A DNA stretch of 64,000 nt from Malacoraja senta. Taxonomy: Eukaryota. The stretch lies in the NCBI GenBank assembly GCA_038087875.1, contig CM075985.1, forward strand, positions 14,198,001 to 14,262,000. The letters are read 5' to 3'. Positions 3,742-53,517 of this stretch are shown piece by piece. The notes beneath the pieces were generated by a model, which had not been told where the DNA came from, ran no database searches, and saw only the letters and a list, made by a program, of their open reading frames with translations. Position 1 is the first letter of the stretch. The number at the start of each line of letters is the position of its first letter. Made by a program: the position numbers and the translations under genes.

Positions 3742-4897
3742 TAGACACAAAAAGCTGGAGTAACTCAGCGGGTCAGATAGCATCTCTGGAGAAAAGGAAT
3801 AGGTGACGTTTCGGGTCGAGACCCTTCTTCAGACTGAGAGTCAGGGGAAATGGAAGCGAGAGATATAGACGGTGATATAGAGAGATTTAGAACAAATGAA
3901 AGATATGCAAAAAAGTAACGATGATAAAGGAAACCGTCCATTGTTAGCTGTGTGCTAGGTGAGAACAAGTACAGACAATGAGATTCAACCAGACAACTTT
4001 GAAGCCGGTACGACTTGGGTGGGGAAGGGATGGAGAGGGGGACGGAATGCAAAGGTTATTTGAAGCTAAAGAAATCAACATTCATACCACTGGGTTGTAA
4101 GCTGCCCAAGCAAAATATGAGGTGGTGTTCCTCTAATTTGCGTTTGGACTCACTCTAACAATGGAGGAGGCCTAGGACAGAAAGGTCAATGTGGGAAGGG
4201 GAATCAAAGTATTTGGCAACCGAGAGTTCAGGTAGGTCCAGATGGACTGAGCGAAGGTGTTCAGCTAAACGATCGCTCAGTCTACATTTGGTTTCACCAA
4301 TGTATAAGAGTCCACACCTTGAACAATGGATACAGTAGATGAGATTGGAGGAGGTGCATTTGAACCTATGCCTGACCAGAAAGGACTGTTGGGGTCCCTG
4401 GACAAGGGTGAGGAGGAAAAGGGACTGGTGTTGCATGTCCAGCAGTTGAGGGGGAAGGTACCTGGGGAGGGGGTGGTTTGGGTGGGAAGGGGTGAGTTAA
4501 CCATGGTGTTGCGGAGGGACGGTCTCTGCGGAAGGCGGAAAGGGGTGGAGATAGGAATATATGACTAGTTGTGGGATCCCGTTGGAGTGGCGAAAATGTT
4601 GGAGGATTATGTGTTGTATGCGACGGCTGATGAAAGGTAAGGACTAAGGGGACTCTGTCCATGTTGTGACTAGAGGGAGGGGGAGCAAGAGTGGACCTGT
4701 GGGGTACCGAGGAGACAGTTGTAAGGGCCTCATCCATGATGGAAGAGGGGAACCTGAGTTCCCTAAAGAATGAGGACATCTTGGATGTCCTGGTATGGAA
4801 CACCTCATCTTGGACGCAGATGCGGATGAGATGCAGGAATTGGGAGTTGGGGATAGAGTCTTTGCAGGAAGCAGGGTGGGAAGAAGTGTAGTCTAGC
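3742..4897 (-). mobile_element. Penelope-like element fragment (RT thumb, GIY-YIG endonuclease, 3' end with hammerhead)
   Basis: SSNLIYCIHCSRCGLLYIGETKCRLSDRLAEH GIY-YIG motif; RVPLVLTFH; frameshifted. Confidence 0.9.
3803..3835 (-). ncRNA. Minimal type I hammerhead ribozyme (Penelope-associated)
   Basis: Minus strand CTGAAGA-AGGGTCTCGACCC-GAAACGTC: CUGAnGA box, stem II, GAAA box, palindromic ACGU stem III, GUC cleavage triplet. Confidence 0.75.
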
Positions 4898-17239: not shown

Positions 17240-18011
17240 AAATAACAGACTACTGACCGACATCTACTACAAACCCACTGACTCCCATGGCTATCTGGAC
17301 TCCACTTCTTCCCACCCTGCTTCCTGTAAGGACTTTATCCCTGACTCCCAATTCCTCCGTCTACGCCGCATCTGCACCCAGGATGAGGTGTTCCAAACCA
17401 GGGCATAGATGTCCTCATTCTTTAGGGAACGGGGGTTCCCCTCTTCGACTATAGATGAGGCTCTCACCAGGGTCTCCTCTATATCCCGTAGCTCCGCTCT
17501 CACTCCCCATCCCCCCACTCGTAACAAGAACAGAGTCCGCCTTGCCCTCACCTTCCACCCTACCAGCCGTCACATACAACAGATAATCCTCCGACATTTT
17601 CGCCACCTCCAACGGGATCCCACCACTGGCCACATCTTCCCATCTCCTCCCCTTTCAGCTTTCTGCAGAGACTGTTCCCTCAGTAACTCTCTGGTCAATT
17701 CGTCCCTTCCCACCCAAACCACCCCCTCCCCGGGTACTTTCCCTTGCAATCGCAGGAAATGCTACATTTGTCGCTTTACCCCCCCCCCCCTCGACTCCAT
17801 CCAAGGACCCAAGCAGGCTTTCCAGGTGAGCCAGAGGTTCACCTGCACCTCCTCTAACCTCATCTATTGCATCACTGCTGTCGGTGTCAACTGCTCTACA
17901 TCGGTGAGACAAAGCGCAGGCTTGGCAATCGCTTCGCACAACACCTCCGCACAGTTCGCATTAACCAACCTAATCACCCAGTGGCTCAGCACTTCAACTC
18001 CCCCTCCCATT
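17240..18011 (+). mobile_element. Penelope-like element fragment (RT C-terminus and GIY-YIG)
   Basis: TDIYYKPTDSH motif; ORF 17409-18029 FRERGFP...FTCTSSNLIYCI. Confidence 0.9.
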
Positions 18012-21189: not shown

Positions 21190-22155
21190 CCCCGCCTCTT
21201 GCAAAGACGCCAATTCCTACTCTCAATTTCTCCTCTCTGTTCCATACCTCTGCTCCCACTCCCCCTTAACCCCAGACAGAACAAGGGCCTGGTCATTATC
21301 TTTCACCATACCAGCCTCTGTATCCAACACATCAATCTCTGACATTTCCACCTTTAACGTGATCTTACGACAAATCACATCTTCCCATTCCCACGCCTTT
21401 CCACTTCCTGTTGAGACCACTCTCTCCCCAACTCCTTGGTTCACTCATCCCTTCCCTCCCAAACTGCCCCTTCTGTCCGGTACCTTTCCCAGCAACGGCA
21501 GATGATACACCTGTCCCGATACCTCCTCCTTCACATATATCCAGGGATCTCAGTACCCCTTCCAGGTGAGGCATGCACATGCACCTCCTCTAACCTTATC
21601 TACTCTGCATTCGATGCTCCAAATGTGGCCTCCTTTACATTGATGAGACCAAGCATAGAGTAGGTGACTGTTTTGCCGAACATTCATGCTCAGGGGCTGC
21701 TGGACCTCTCCTTCCCATTCTGATACTGAACTTTCTGTCCTGGGCCTCTTCTAGTGCCAGATGGAGGCCACATGCAAACTGGAGGAACAGTACCTCATAT
21801 TCTGCTTGGGAAGCTTATAACCCAACAGTATGAACATTGAATTCTTCAATTTAGGTAACCCCCTCTTTTCTTACTGCCTTTTTTTCAGTGCCCCACCCTG
21901 GTGCGAACCTATTTCTCCCAATATCCTACCCCTCTTTCCATCTATATTCTCTCCCTCAGTCTTTACATTTCACTTATCTTCTCTCTTATCTAACACCCTT
22001 TCGTCTCCTTTTCATCTCTAGCCTTTGTCCACCCATTTACCAATCAAACCCCCGTCACCTCAATCCACCTATCATTTGCTAGCCTTTGTCCCTCCCCACC
22101 TCTTTTCCAGCTTTCTCCCCTTTGCACGAACAGTCTGAGGAAGGATCCCAACCCG
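21190..22155 (+). mobile_element. Degenerate Penelope-like fragment running into the gap
   Basis: CTSSNLIYS, KLEEQ motif; ends in a hammerhead-like CTGAGGAAGGATCCCAACCCG at the gap edge. Confidence 0.8.
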
Positions 22156-22355
22156 NNNNNNNNNNNNNNNNNNNNNNNNNNNNNNNNNNNNNNNNNNNNN
22201 NNNNNNNNNNNNNNNNNNNNNNNNNNNNNNNNNNNNNNNNNNNNNNNNNNNNNNNNNNNNNNNNNNNNNNNNNNNNNNNNNNNNNNNNNNNNNNNNNNNN
22301 NNNNNNNNNNNNNNNNNNNNNNNNNNNNNNNNNNNNNNNNNNNNNNNNNNNNNNN
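22156..22355. other. Assembly gap (200 N)
   Basis: Run of N. Confidence 1.
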
Positions 22356-30949: not shown

Positions 30950-31485
30950 AAGCGAGTTCTGTATTCCGACTGCGCATGCCCAGGTCATAGGTCACGCGCT
31001 ATAAACATTTTCGGCAGCTGTGGTGCTGCGTTGTGTGAAGGCCTGCGTTTCGTCCGCGGTCGGGGTTGGGCCCGCGTCTCCGGCGCTGTTGAGTTGCTGC
31101 TGGGCCATCCCCGTCCACTCCCGGGGGGGAGGCGCTCGGCTCTGCTCTGGCTCCCGGGGAGGATGTTCCCCAGAGGGCCGGGGACCGTCGGCTGCACCTC
31201 TCGCCTTGTCCAGTGGCTGTCGGTTGGCCTCCTCGGTGCTGGCGGGGGCCAAGCGGCAGTCATCGGCGGGGATGCACACAGGGTGCTGCGGTGGCTCGGC
31301 GGGTCAGGCAACATCTCTGGAGATGGGTCTCGACCCGAAACGTCACCCATTTCTTTTCTCCAGGGATGCTGCCTGTCTCGCTGAGTTGTTGCAGCATTTT
31401 GTGTGTGTGTTCGTTGATGGCTGATGCTCAGCTTTTGCCGGCGACGGGGGGGTTGGCAGGCGGCCATTGGGTGGGGCGGGGTGTG
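30950..31485. mobile_element. AT-target TIR family copy 3 (left terminus plus inverted interior, captured hammerhead hairpin)
   Basis: aat|AAGCGAGTTCTGTATTCCGACTGCGCATGCCCAGGTCATAGGTCAC; interior is the reverse complement of parts of 26600-26735 and 19160-19420. Confidence 0.75.
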
Positions 31486-31944
31486 CGGCAAAGTTTGTTT
31501 CTTAAAAGCAGATAGCAATAAAAACTGTTAAAGGTAAAACCATGGCAATCTTTAATTGATTCGTCAGACGGGAGTGGCGATCTACAATGAGCATAAACAT
31601 TGCTCAGTGCTTCTCTGGTTCCCACTCACAGAACAAAGGACAGTTAGCACAATTATACATTTTTCTTATCAGTAAAACACTCCTACCAAGTCTGAATATG
31701 GCATGACTGCAAGATTCTGCAACCTTTCAGAATATAAGAAAAGCTGGGTCCAAATCAAGCTCATCCAATAACAAGTTATTACTTATCTCTGGAGCGTCAG
31801 CTATTTTTTTCAATATTGGCTTCTTTATGGCCTTGAAAAGAAGCACATGTTATTACTGCAGGCTCCCGGGGAGGATGTTCCCCAGAGGGCCGGGGACCGT
31901 ACACCCCGCCCCACCCAATGGCCGCCTGCCAACCCCCCCGTCTT

Positions 31945-32124
31945 AATGTCTTTATTGAAAAGACAACCTGTCCTCCATAATGTGTTCCATATAATTTACA
32001 AAGTCATTCAGACTTGGCACCGAGCCATTCTTTTGTTCTACTAGTCCATGATTTGTAGAAGAACGACTCCATTTTAAATTTGACTATTAGATTTGACTAT
32101 TAGCTCTTTCATTCCCTCCTTTTT
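31945..32124 (-). mobile_element. Retroviral polypurine tract and start of 3' LTR (U3), copy 1
   Basis: Minus strand AAAAAGGAGGGAA (32124-32112) directly followed by TGAAAGAG (LTR TG start at 32111). Confidence 0.75.
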
Positions 32125-32139
32125 ATTAAACGTGATAAC

Positions 32140-32317
32140 ATTCACAGTCCTCGGTAGGTACACACAATGGTCGCGTATTAGAGCAATGATTAGCAGAATG
32201 ATAGAGCCATAATGTATCACAGTACCCCAAAGTCCACCAAACCAAAGGTATGGATACCAGTTCAATAGTACCCCAAAGTCCATCAAACCAATGGCATTGC
32301 AACCAGTTCTCACTTTC
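32140..32317 (-). pseudogene. Retroviral Env-like membrane-proximal and transmembrane tail, copy 1
   Basis: NWYPYLWFGGLWGTVIHYGSIILLIIALI; Trp-rich segment plus hydrophobic TM ending just upstream of the PPT. Confidence 0.7.
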
Positions 32318-33058
32318 TTCATTGACAACCATCCTGATGAAGATTGTATAGGGTCAATTGATCAGGTGCCACCTGTAGGCGGTGTAATCTTTTGAGCCGA
32401 TATTGTGGTTGTGCCATAAAGTTCGTACCTGTCCGAGGGTGTTGCCAGTCTCTTCGTAGATCGTTGCACAGGTCAGGTGCTCCCCCCCTCTCATCCTGTG
32501 GTGGGGTTCATCACCCTGATCTAGACGCTATCGTATCGGTGGGTTTGGACAGCTTCTCCTAGTAGGTTTGGGTGGCCTGCTTCCACATCACCACGTAGAA
32601 GCCAAAGACTGGAAGCCAAAGACTAAGCCAGCATAGATTGCAGTCTGTGTTGATGTAGAAGGTGCCACTGAAGTTGATGCCGTTGAACTCCTCAAATCCG
32701 ACAGTAAGGCCAGGGTCAGAGTTGGCAGGATGCAGTAACTCCCTGCCCTTGTTGCGCACTACCCAGTTAGGAACGATCTGCATCGTCCCCTTTGGAACTT
32801 CCTCAGGTCAGTCTCACTGATGGCGCTGTTCTCGGGGCACATGTCATAGATATCTGAGATGTTGTTGTCAAAGTCCTCCTTGCAGTTGTCTCCTCTGCTG
32901 TCACCATCGTCATCGATCTGGTCAGGGTTGGGAACAAAACGGCAATTGTCCTTCTCATCAGAAACGCCATCATTGCCATCCTCATCAATGTCCTGATTGT
33001 CATCACACTGATTACTGAGCAGGTCTGAGTCATTGTCTTCCTGAATAGGGTTATGAAT
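32318..33058 (-). pseudogene. Intronless, decayed thrombospondin-1/2 fragment (type-3 repeats plus C-terminal domain), closest to THBS2
   Basis: [158 protein letters not shown]; several deletions, frameshifts and stops. Confidence 0.92.
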
Positions 33059-33500
33059 AATCTCTTTCAAAAGGTCCATTTGTTTCAAAATGTTCAGCTT
33101 CTCTCCTTCTAGACCCTTGGTCATACGATAGAGCTCAAAATGCTTCAAGATTGTTGATCAAATGTGGGTTGTCTTTCCGAAGTTGTGACCAAAGGCTTTG
33201 CACTTCCTACTGATCTGTAAAGATGTTCTTTCTTCTGTATGGATCAGCTTTACATGGTGCTGCTGGTAGTGATCAATCAGAAACACCTTGTTACCTCCTG
33301 GGTGGGGCAAGGTCTTTCACGCACCTCTTCATGCTGCTCTTTTATGTTTCTGAAGTTTGTCAACTCCTTATACTAACATCGATACACAGTGGGGAAATCT
33401 TCCCTTTCCAAGTTTGACTTTGGTTTCCAGCCACGTTTTTGTCCAGATTGTTTCTTCACATCCTTAATATTGCACTTCATAACTGGTAACTTACTCTTCT

Positions 33501-33883
33501 GGATGGCTGTCAATGAAGAGAGTGAGAACTGGTTGCCATACCATTGGTTTGATGGACTTTGGGGTACTATTGAACTAGTAGCCATACCTTTGGTTTGGTG
33601 GACTTTGGGGTACTGTGATACATTATGGCTCTATCATTCTGCTAATCATAGCTCTAATACTTGCGACCATTGCGTGTACCTACCGAGGACTGTGAATGTT
33701 ATCACTTTTGATAAAAAGGAGGGAATGAAAGAGTTAATAGTCAAATCTAATAGTCAAAACTAAAATGGAGTCGTTCTTCCACAAAAGCATATACTAGTAG
33801 AACAAAAGAATGGCTCGGTGCCAAGTCTGAATGACATTGTAAATTATATGGAACACAATATGGAGGACAGGTTGTCTTTTCAA
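33501..33883 (+). mobile_element. Inverted second copy of THBS end + Env TM + PPT + U3
   Basis: Reverse complement of 31955-32334 (about 19 substitutions and 2 small indels counted by eye); PPT 33713-33725, TG at 33726; WFGGLWGTVIHYGSIILLIIALILATIACTYRGL*. Confidence 0.85.
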
Positions 33884-33904
33884 AACACTGTCTCCTCAAG
33901 ACAC

Positions 33905-34880
33905 ATTCGTTCCACACCAGGGCATCTGAAATGTCCTCATTCTTCAGGGAACGGGGGTTCCCCTCCTCCACCATAGATGAGGCTCGCACCAGTGTCTCTG
34001 CCATACCACGCAACACTGCTCTCTCTCCCCATCCCCCCACTCACAACAAGGGCAGAGTCCCTCTAGTCCTCACCTTTCACCCCACCAGCCGTCACATACA
34101 ACAAATGTCCTCCGTCAGTTTCGCCACCTCCAACGTGACCCCACCACTCGCCACATCTTCCCATCTCCCCCCATGTCTGCCTTCCGCAAAGACCGCTCCC
34201 TCCGTAACTCCCTTGTCAATTCTTCCCTTCCCTCCCATACCACCCCCTCCCCTGGTACTTTCCCTTGCAACCGCAAGAGATGCAACACTTGTCCCTTCAC
34301 CTCCCCCCTCCACTCCATTCAAGGACCCAAGCAGTCGTTCCAGGTGCGACAGAGGTTCACCTGCATCTCCTCCAACCTCATCTATTGCATTTGCTGCTCT
34401 AGATGCCAGCTGATCTACATCGGTGAGACCAAGCGGAGGCTTGGCGATCGTTTCGCCGAACACCTCCGGTCAGTCCGCAATAACCAACCTGAACTCCCGG
34501 TGGCTCAGCACTTCAACTCCCCCTCCCATTCCGTATCTGACCTCTCTGTCCTGGGTCTCCTCCAGGGCCACAGCGAGCAACACCGTAAATTGGAGGAAAT
34601 GCACCTCATATTCCGCTTGGGCAGTCTACATCCTGGGGGTTTGAACATTGAATTCTCCCAATTCTGCTAGCCCTTGCTGTCCCCTCCCCTTCATCAGCCA
34701 TCTGGTTGTCTCCTCCCCTCCCCCAGCCCTCGGGCTCCTCCTCCGCCTTTTTCCTTTTTTCCTTTCTTCTCCCCACCCCCTATCAGTCTGAAGAAGGGTT
34801 TCGGCCCGAAACGTTACCTATTTCCTTCGCTCCATAGATGCTGCTGCACCCACTGAGTTTCTCCAGCATTTTTGTGTACC
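33905..34880 (+). mobile_element. Young Penelope-like element, 5'-truncated, intact GIY-YIG domain
   Basis: ORF 34173-34670: CNRKRCNTC, FTCISSNLIYCICCSRCQLIYIGETKRRLGDRFAEH, KLEEMHLIFRLGSLHPGGLNIE. Confidence 0.93.
34785..34818 (+). ncRNA. Minimal hammerhead ribozyme in Penelope 3' end
   Basis: CTGAAGA-AGGGTTTCGGCCC-GAAACGTT. Confidence 0.7.
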
Positions 34881-34899
34881 TTGTCTTTTCAATACATTG

Positions 34900-35095
34900 T
34901 TTAAGAAGGAACTGCAGATGCTGGAAAATCGAAGGTAGACAAAAATGCTTGAGAAACTCAGCGGGAAGGCAGCATCTATGGAGCGAAAGAAATAGGCAAC
35001 GTTTCGGGTCGAAACCCTTCTTCAGAAGAAACGTTGCCTATTTCCTTCGCTCCATAGATGCTACCTCACCAGCTGAGTTTCTCCAGCACTTTTGT
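34900..35095. repeat. Fold-back (palindromic) Penelope tail with a hammerhead at the apex
   Basis: AGCATCTATGGAGCGAAAGAAATAGGCAACGTTTC ... GAAACGTTGCCTATTTCCTTCGCTCCATAGATGCT. Confidence 0.8.
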
Positions 35096-35987
35096 TTTTT
35101 CAATACACTTCTTTTCAAGACACCTTGTCTTTCCAATACACATTAATGACAAAAACTTTGTAGTCTGCCGTGTCCAATCCTTTAAATGTGACAAAACCTC
35201 TACCGTGGCCAATCCTTTAATCATTTCCAATACACAAGCCAATCCTTTAGGATCTAAAATATCTGATCTATTACTGTTTGTGAGTGTGAGATATTTGCAA
35301 TGAAAATTTTCACATCCAGTAGGAACAAATGGATACCTTTTATCTGGCTTAAATAATATTTTACTTTAAGAATAGTTTCTAAATACCTAGTGTAATACTT
35401 ATCTGTTAAGTATGCTGGAAAAGACAAGGAAGCAGACCACCTCATTAAGGACAGAGAAACATTAATAGTAATATTTATACTTTTGCATTTAACTATATAT
35501 GTACGAATTCCTGGAGTTGCTTTTAGTTTCATAAAGTAATGAGAGCAGTTGCTAATAGTAAATCCAACATCCTGACTATTAATTTTCTTTCTCTCTCCAC
35601 AAATATTTTCTGACTTGCTGAGCCATTTCAAGTATTTCTGTTACATATATACCTCTGTTTTTTTTCTTTGAACTTTATTAATTTGTTCAAAAGTTTGCAG
35701 CAAAAATGTATTCTGCAGTATGTATGGTACATTTTAACACTAAGATTTCAGAGTGTGATGCTTTATATGCCTTATCTCTCAAACAAAAGTAACCACCTCT
35801 CAATGGTGGGGTTTATATAGCTCTAATGCGCAGCTCAGTCACAGCAGATCAAGAAGTACATTAGTCCCTTTGTTATCTCCATAATGGATAATTCATAAAA
35901 TCCTTATATACATTTACTTGTCAGTGAGTTAGAAATTATGTTTATTTTATGATGTTTGGTATTTGAATATAATGCACAGAAAATTGT

Positions 35988-52603: not shown

Positions 52604-53517
52604 CTAGACCCATTGGGTCCCATTCTCACATGGGAGGGCTGGTCCCCCAACGCAATATTCCACCTCTCCACCAATTCCAATATTGGTGGGCAGTGGGGCT
52701 TTTTGGAGTACTAGTATGGGTGTTGTGGGCCGAAGGGACTGGTTTCCAGAGGGCTCGTATGGACATTGTGGGTCGAATGGATTCTTGGACACACAGTTCA
52801 GTCACACGACTGGTGAACTCACAGTTCAGTCACTCACGGCTGGTGGACTGACAGTTCACTCATTCACGGCTGGTGGACTGACAGTTCACTCACTCACTGC
52901 TGGTGGACTCACAGTTCACTCACTCACAGCTGGTGGACTCACAGTTCACTCATTCACGGCTGGTGGACTCACAGTTCAATCACACGGCTGGTGTACTCAT
53001 CCATCACACACAACACACGCCCTCCATCATGCACACATCCTCCATCACACACACACACACCCTCCATCACACACACACACACCCTCCATCACACACACAC
53101 ACCCTCCATTACACACACACCCTCCATCATATACACACTCTCCATCACACACACACACACACACACACACCCTCCATCACACACACAAACACCCTCCAGC
53201 ACACATACTCTCCATCACACACACACTCCATCACACACACACCCTCCATCACACACATACACCCTCCATCACACACACCCTCCATCACACACGCACACTC
53301 CATCACATACANNNNNNNNNNNNNNNNNNNNNNNNNNNNNNNNNNNNNNNNNNNNNNNNNNNNNNNNNNNNNNNNNNNNNNNNNNNNNNNNNNNNNNNNN
53401 NNNNNNNNNNNNNNNNNNNNNNNNNNNNNNNNNNNNNNNNNNNNNNNNNNNNNNNNNNNNNNNNNNNNNNNNACTCACCCTCCATCTCACACACACACCC
53501 ACACCCTCACCCTCCAT

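Follow-up and report, generated by a model that had tools for sequence, protein, structure and literature searches.

A non-autonomous class I endogenous retrovirus of the skate Malacoraja senta with nested, spliced fragments of four host mRNAs in its env region

Acutely transforming retroviruses are characterized by env-oncogene or gag-oncogene fusions, a defective genome, a spliced host insert and a dependence on helper virus. Host mRNAs have also been found in LTR elements of animals and plants. A template-switch model accounts for LTR-mediated retrocopies, among which the mouse "Super" retrocopy associates four genes and one SINE at a single locus (Tan et al. 2016, PMC5131818). The maize element Bs1, as described in the same paper, contains pieces of three genes, occurs in 1-5 copies and possesses a hybrid ORF (PMC5131818). 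In crocodilians, CrocERV31-nectin3 and CrocERV29-KIT-ligand took up one gene each, occur in six and nine copies, respectively, and keep open ORFs under purifying selection (PMC4299795). The accessible part of a further paper contains nothing on host-gene capture (PMC10536682). No description of the element presented below, or of a thrombospondin-env chimera, was encountered in the full-text literature, most subscription papers, repeat databases and supplements lying outside the scope of this search.

The window, i.e., the whole stretch of 64,000 nucleotides of skate DNA that was analysed, contains a single copy, itself rearranged, of a ~6.3 kb non-autonomous endogenous retrovirus of class I (gamma/epsilon-like). 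It is highly probable that nested spliced pieces of four host mRNAs took the place of the env ectodomain of this element, likely through serial template switching of the reverse transcriptase, and that the result has been propagated, likely by a helper, as non-coding cargo. It represents retroviral capture of a known kind, LTR-mediated retroposition, which is unusual for its scale, its four nested genes, its amplification and its preserved intermediates. With acutely transforming retroviruses it shares the defective genome, the spliced host insert and, presumably, the helper dependence, but it lacks any intact or selected host-derived ORF. As in the animal LTR-mediated retrocopies, partial spliced mRNAs stand in place of internal viral ORFs between LTRs, with microsimilarity at the joints, several parental genes and secondary retroposition (PMC5131818). 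Unlike the mouse four-gene retrocopy, known from one locus, the skate chimera occurs at ~75 or more loci, is nested, and has left earlier stages in the genome (PMC5131818). Similarly to Bs1, it is an LTR element with fragments of several unlinked host genes and joints identical across copies, but it differs by its retroviral nature, its four genes, its far higher copy number and the lack of an open hybrid frame (PMC5131818). Finally, it resembles the crocodilian elements as a vertebrate ERV that took up the mRNA of an extracellular protein, the insert of CrocERV31 also replacing env (PMC4299795), but differs by a frame disrupted throughout the family and by three additional genes nested within.

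The features of the window copy are collected in Table 1. The original prediction, made from the letters of the window, had described an intronless THBS1/2 segment running in a single frame into an Env membrane anchor. The segment is indeed intronless, matches Pfam TSP_3 (E 1.7e-8) and TSP_C (E 7.2e-17), has a ray thrombospondin-2-like protein (P0122) as its nearest protein, and spans five exon boundaries according to the exon map of a host paralogue, in agreement with the number of about five anticipated. The single frame did not hold, as five frameshifts and three stops occur over residues 902-1132 of this copy (row L013), with one stop 12 codons before the junction, and ~33 residues of the type-3 repeats are deleted. 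The other details of the junction were read correctly: the last thrombospondin codons continue into ESENWLQCHWFDGLWGT, the 46-nt tandem duplication is present, and the polypurine tract precedes an LTR starting with TGAAAGA at 32111. What had been taken for a second copy of the tail does exist, but as a 94% identical inverted duplicate absent from all 20 other copies fetched, which rules out an inverted-repeat element of the DNA transposon or DIRS type. The inversion-duplication is private to the window copy, which later lost through it the 5' LTR and ~3.4 kb of the element middle; the joints of the inverted tail overlap by 10 nt and 6 nt. The RASEF-like and ZNF276 cDNA lying directly upstream of the thrombospondin segment (33500-33061) had been overlooked, and the thrombospondin-Env observation is thus a small part of the whole feature.

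Table 1. Features of the retroviral copy in the window (minus-strand element; positions are those of the window)
Feature	Positions	Strand	Basis
5' leader remnant (no 5' LTR or PBS left)	35092..35249	-	89% identity to the leader in L026, a full copy
Later insertions splitting the leader: GIY-YIG-bearing retroelement fragment and SINE-like repeats	33908..35091	.	Pfam GIY-YIG E 2.9e-4, just under cut-off; many matches within the window
Leader, continued; overlaps inverted segment by 10 nt	33874..33907	-	34 nt, 100% identical to L026
Inverted duplicate of env tail, PPT and LTR start; replaces ~3.4 kb of element middle	33495..33883	+	389 nt, 93.8%
ZNF276 cDNA, spliced: exons 7-9 and first bases of exon 10	33226..33500	-	Family segment vs skate ZNF276 E 1.3e-75; host exons mapped
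RASEF-like (Rab45-type) cDNA, two non-adjacent pieces	33061..33231	-	P0165; host gene G000:C3 72.20-72.22 Mb; 88-94% nt identity to host exons in copies L037, L080
Thrombospondin-2-like cDNA, broken; residues ~843-1132 of P0122 (type-3 repeats, most of C-terminal domain)	32317..33060	-	Pfam, protein alignment
env membrane-proximal region, TM, short tail; 46-nt tandem duplication at 32221-32309	32142..32316	-	Homology to related class I env
Polypurine tract	32112..32124	-	Sequence; equivalent position upstream of the 3' LTR in other copies
3' LTR, ~550 nt, with 70-nt insert 31868-31937	31489..32111	-	Other copies carry it as a direct repeat at either end

The 70-nt insert of the LTR consists of two pieces copied from the nearby flank (31443-31488, inverted, and 31149-31188) and looks like a templated repair insert. 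The GIY-YIG fragment that splits the leader, which we take to be Penelope-like and accompanied by SINE-like repeats, occupies 33909-34656, and similar fragments occur elsewhere in the window, at 4070-4801, 17390-18011 and 21250-21845. The two N stretches of the window (22156-22355 and 53312-53472) lie outside the feature.

A search of the 1.94 Gb genome with the THBS/tail junction yielded 255 first-look candidates, and all 39 other loci that were scored match over most of its length at 88-93%; other segments of the element used as queries gave 142 and 102 candidates. With a type-3-repeat query, for which all 146 candidates were scored, 84 matches were obtained, 8 of them in two host gene loci and 76 elsewhere, so that ~75 or more loci can be taken as a rough floor for the copy number, rough because some are segmental or assembly duplicates. 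Uninterrupted copies measure 6.2-6.5 kb, and LINE and SINE insertions are common among the copies. The start of the 5' LTR is present in 11 of the 20 fetched copies and is directly followed in 10 by a TGG-led motif of putative PBS type, which may correspond to tRNA-Ser. The core 15-mer of this motif occurs 137 times in the genome, vs 0 for a control, and, in the 12 loci read, follows LTR-like ends; ARAGORN detected a tRNA in 0/12 of these loci. The LTR ends are TG...CA in 8/9 copies with both ends called; among the 12 copies tried for target-site duplications, three lacked a 3' end call, and the 4-bp duplication was perfect in 5/9, 3/4 in three and 0/4 in one. Internal joints are shared between dispersed loci, each with its own target duplications. 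The junction search advocated by the original prediction has thus recovered relatives with LTRs and target duplications, although no open chimeric ORF was found among them. Given these LTR-flanked relatives, and the matches of the element's env signal peptide and TM tail to env-bearing relatives, the junction is neither a unique one devoid of ERV relatives nor the result of an ERV inserted independently beside a thrombospondin retropseudogene.

The distance between the two LTRs of a copy ranges from 0.017 to 0.075 (nine copies; L035 is omitted, its second LTR being a local duplication), which, at an assumed rate of 0.5-1 x 10^-9 substitutions per site per year, would correspond to roughly 9-75 million years. 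Sequencing runs from nine organisms and 11 studies contain part of the stretch, two DNA runs covering 30/30 bins. None of the runs containing it is on record as RNA; contigs over it occur in two runs guessed to be RNA, in which DNA is possible and which cannot show transcription of the element.

With respect to the viral backbone, a related provirus of the same genome comprises gag, pol in frame behind the gag stop, and env, and its domains include MLVIN_C and TLV_coat. Compared with this provirus, copy L036 has retained the N-terminus of gag (E 3e-22) and the C-terminus of integrase (E 3e-8), and the tail of the element aligns with the C-terminus of a related proviral env with a score of 103, reached by 0/2000 shuffles, in support of the retroviral nature predicted for the tail; Pfam gave no meaningful match with the gag, integrase and tail remnants alone. 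Reverse transcriptase is missing from the main-clade copies examined, and an RT remnant is kept in an early copy on C6. Sister elements with the same deleted backbone keep env remnants between the signal peptide and the TM, and therefore the host pieces replace the env ectodomain. The idea that a retrovirus took up a spliced thrombospondin mRNA in place of this ectodomain accordingly stands, with LTR-flanked relatives and matches to both env ends. Two sister non-autonomous elements, L283 (G000:C1 143.54 Mb) and L282 (G000:C1 53.15 Mb), share the deleted gag-pol backbone and the env remnants and carry no host pieces. No direct helper could be found, and the closest proviruses match at only ~70-85% of nucleotides: by DNA, 0/30 TLV_coat loci match, a few of 30 MLVIN_C loci give a related family only, and 6/12 PBS loci give distant relatives. 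Many families of class I proviruses occur in the genome, and long open frames of env or pol are retained in several (L165-L194, L195-L224).

The captured thrombospondin likely derives from the host's own gene, as suggested by a 2,747-nt contig from a guessed-RNA run that matches the thrombospondin piece of the early C6 copy over 84 nt with 4 differences and 1 gap, and continues as thrombospondin sequence across an exon boundary. Both ends of the captured piece are marked by contigs that continue in this way. The likely source gene, at G000:C2 108.124 Mb (L121, L131-L144), shows only N-terminal exons, 91% identical to P0122, in 140 kb, its 3' half not being found in the assembly as searched. 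The missing part may correspond to an assembly gap or a rearrangement; one sequencing run contains a long contig that matches. Another thrombospondin gene, at G000:C2 44.75 Mb, was ruled out as source with ~70-86% nucleotide identity over short blocks.

In full copies, the cargo consists, in order, of the env signal, a short thrombospondin piece (from ~811), a RASEF-like piece with Bicaudal-D inside, a second RASEF-like piece, ZNF276, a third RASEF-like piece, thrombospondin 843-1132 and the env TM. The pieces are accordingly nested, with env enclosing thrombospondin-2-like, which encloses RASEF-like, which encloses both Bicaudal-D and ZNF276. The host ZNF276 and RASEF-like genes were located and contain introns, and the corresponding pieces of the element are spliced. 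The three RASEF-like pieces, which share 88-100% identity with the host exons, are out of order; an 8-nt overlap joins one pair, and no long overlap was evident by eye at the thrombospondin-RASEF joints. The Bicaudal-D piece matches BicD (E 7.6e-12), as do all nine relatives scanned, and is placed inside RASEF by a 33-nt DNA match at one end and a short match at the protein level at the other; the ESM Atlas returned only unnamed clusters for this coiled-coil piece, and its host gene was not located. A predicted protein of 74 aa from public run assemblies (P0166) is 97% identical to the Bicaudal-D-containing frame, so frames of the element are entering protein databases.

The ZNF276 insert, whose host exons are 89-100% identical to the skate protein, is circularly permuted: it reads from exon 10 to the 3' UTR and resumes in exon 2, up to the first bases of exon 10. 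Its point of insertion is a short shared motif within a RASEF exon, with overlaps of ~6 nt at entry and exit, and shorter deletion forms of it exist as a series; like the 8-nt and 7-nt overlaps of the RASEF and ZNF276 joints, these lengths are observed values. A provirus inserted in intron 9 of ZNF276 does not account for the permutation, since the breakpoint falls within exon 10, a few bases from its start; it is also disfavoured by the 0 matches to the 3' LTR in the 120 kb around the host gene. The permutation might alternatively result from a single round of copying on a circular RNA template. This explanation, which concerns the ZNF276 step only, would fit a full permutation that enters and leaves at one site, and LTR-flanked pseudogenes derived from circRFWD2, with non-colinear exons and dozens of copies, are known from mouse (PMC4897178). 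It is nevertheless unlikely: unlike the back-splice of these pseudogenes, located at exon ends, the closing joint of the skate insert connects the mid-3' UTR to mid-exon 2 by a 7-nt overlap rather than a donor to an acceptor, and reverse transcription through an open, folded RNA can yield such joints (PMC4897178).

To our knowledge, ZNF276 is the only vertebrate zf-AD gene. Two other loci, L045 (G000:C2457:191730-191945) and L046 (G000:C2682:247783-247992), give zf-AD matches above the Pfam cut-off that do not correspond to skate ZNF276, one of them within a 416-aa open frame; they may be new or contaminant.

The order of the captures can be approached from a tree of 35 copies, rooted by means of 278 outgroup letters and without resolution in its crown. 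A five-copy cluster on one contig splits first, followed by the two ZNF276-free copies (support 100 and 96), ahead of the ZNF276-bearing clade (92). These two copies correspond to 1 of 30 loci, in which the RASEF splice junction is intact, and to a second one found separately. On the evidence of this branching order, capture was likely serial, since the ZNF276-free copies branch before the ZNF276-bearing ones. The ZNF276 status of the earliest cluster is unreadable in this comparison because a LINE replaced that region. The early-branching cluster at G000:C385 (110-400 kb), in which a LINE piece replaces part of the RASEF region, has likely spread by segmental duplication. The diverged C6 copy combines its RT remnants with a longer first thrombospondin piece and then breaks off; apart from this truncated early copy, a complete thrombospondin-only stage was not found among the 146/146 scored candidates.

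According to the mechanism favoured here, host mRNAs would have been packaged together with the viral RNA, and the reverse transcriptase would have switched template to a co-packaged mRNA, one gene after another. The nesting suggests that thrombospondin was taken up first, then RASEF, then Bicaudal-D. The permuted ZNF276 insert may reflect three switches, the first into exon 10, the second from exon 2 across to the 3' UTR and the third back out at the entry site. A helper virus would have mobilised the product in trans, as broken cargo, and the window copy would afterwards have lost its 5' LTR and middle by its private inversion-duplication.

The coding state of the cargo bears on the most ambitious part of the original prediction, a membrane-tethered thrombospondin acquired in the manner of oncogene capture. 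The thrombospondin frame contains at least 6 lesions in 36/36 copies (one duplicated piece within L025 being left out of the counts). Lesions are shared across the family: frameshifts near residues 962-975, 1023-1027 and 1057-1060 occur in 33/34, 33/36 and 34/36 copies, respectively, and stops at 1107 and 1122 in 32/36 and 30/36. Of the 32 copies scored for the phase between signal peptide and thrombospondin, 30 have the two in different frames (11 further rows being unscored), and this also holds for the early C6 copy. At the other end, thrombospondin and TM are out of phase in 23/30 copies and in phase in 7/30 (6 unscored), the TM being reached stop-free from the last thrombospondin codons in 2/30. 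Over 244 codons, the pairwise pN/pS of thrombospondin is 0.65 within the main clade, 0.58 (0.44-0.82) between the earliest cluster and the main clade, which is like the within-clade value, and 0.53 (5-95%: 0.39-0.63) between ZNF276-free and main copies, at the edge of the neutral range, for an expectation of 0.63-0.72 under neutral simulation; within the five early copies it reaches 2.15, with few changes. The substitutions of thrombospondin among copies fit neutral decay, and the selection check proposed earlier, with values of 0.53-0.65 among copies, revealed no purifying selection on the captured piece. For ZNF276, the ratio is 0.93 for private changes, 1.07 for minority-shared changes and 0.22 for changes shared by most copies, the latter value likely reflecting the constrained evolution of the host gene itself. 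The family-shared lesions, the phase counts and the substitution ratios therefore indicate that the amplified template was already broken. With three more captures splitting it as well, the membrane-tethered thrombospondin could not be retained, and a functional thrombospondin-Env chimera is unlikely.

A founder could still have encoded an in-frame surface protein, made of the Env signal, the calcium-binding domain of thrombospondin and the Env TM, whose descendants trapped further mRNAs, one of them possibly circular, while spreading through skates; such a founder, which would have exchanged the receptor-binding ectodomain for a host adhesion module, appears rather unlikely. A stronger version, in which the first capture was a working and selected membrane-anchored protein (env signal, type-3 repeats plus C-terminal domain, env TM) that helped the virus until later captures destroyed it, appears very unlikely. 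The location of the insert between the env signal peptide and the membrane-proximal region, the copies in phase with the TM and the alignment with env-bearing sisters, compatible with a 5' joint originally in phase, agree with it, as does the precedent of CrocERV31, where nectin3 under purifying selection replaces env (PMC4299795). Against it stand the dephased signal peptide, early C6 copy included, the minimum of six lesions in each copy, the early-vs-main ratio similar to that within the clade, the loss of the last ~40 residues of the C-terminal domain from the captured piece, and the identity of the copies to the ray thrombospondin-2-like protein, which amounts to 73-79% vs 95% and 92% for the shark and chimaera proteins. 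An entry of the host pieces as DNA, whereby processed pseudogenes generated by LINEs would have integrated into a provirus or recombined with it before amplification, is extremely improbable and already largely refuted by the joints, as, despite the frequent LINE and SINE insertions in the copies, the pieces are internal mRNA fragments in scrambled order with short-overlap joints and no poly(A) run at their ends in the copies read, and env sequence is replaced rather than interrupted.

On present evidence, the retroviral element with its captured mRNA fragments does not constitute a new working system. Its interest resides in the fact that multi-gene capture by LTR elements has so far been described from single loci or few copies, whereas a staged series is available here within one lineage, from env-bearing sisters to a truncated thrombospondin-only copy, ZNF276-free copies and ZNF276-bearing copies with their deletion series. 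The order and the joints of retroviral transduction can thus be read from genomic sequence, with implications for oncogene capture and exon shuffling. At the level of the skate genome, scores of intronless look-alikes of THBS2, ZNF276, RASEF and BICD may mislead gene annotation, and the captured set suggests which mRNAs got packaged in germ-line or early embryo cells.
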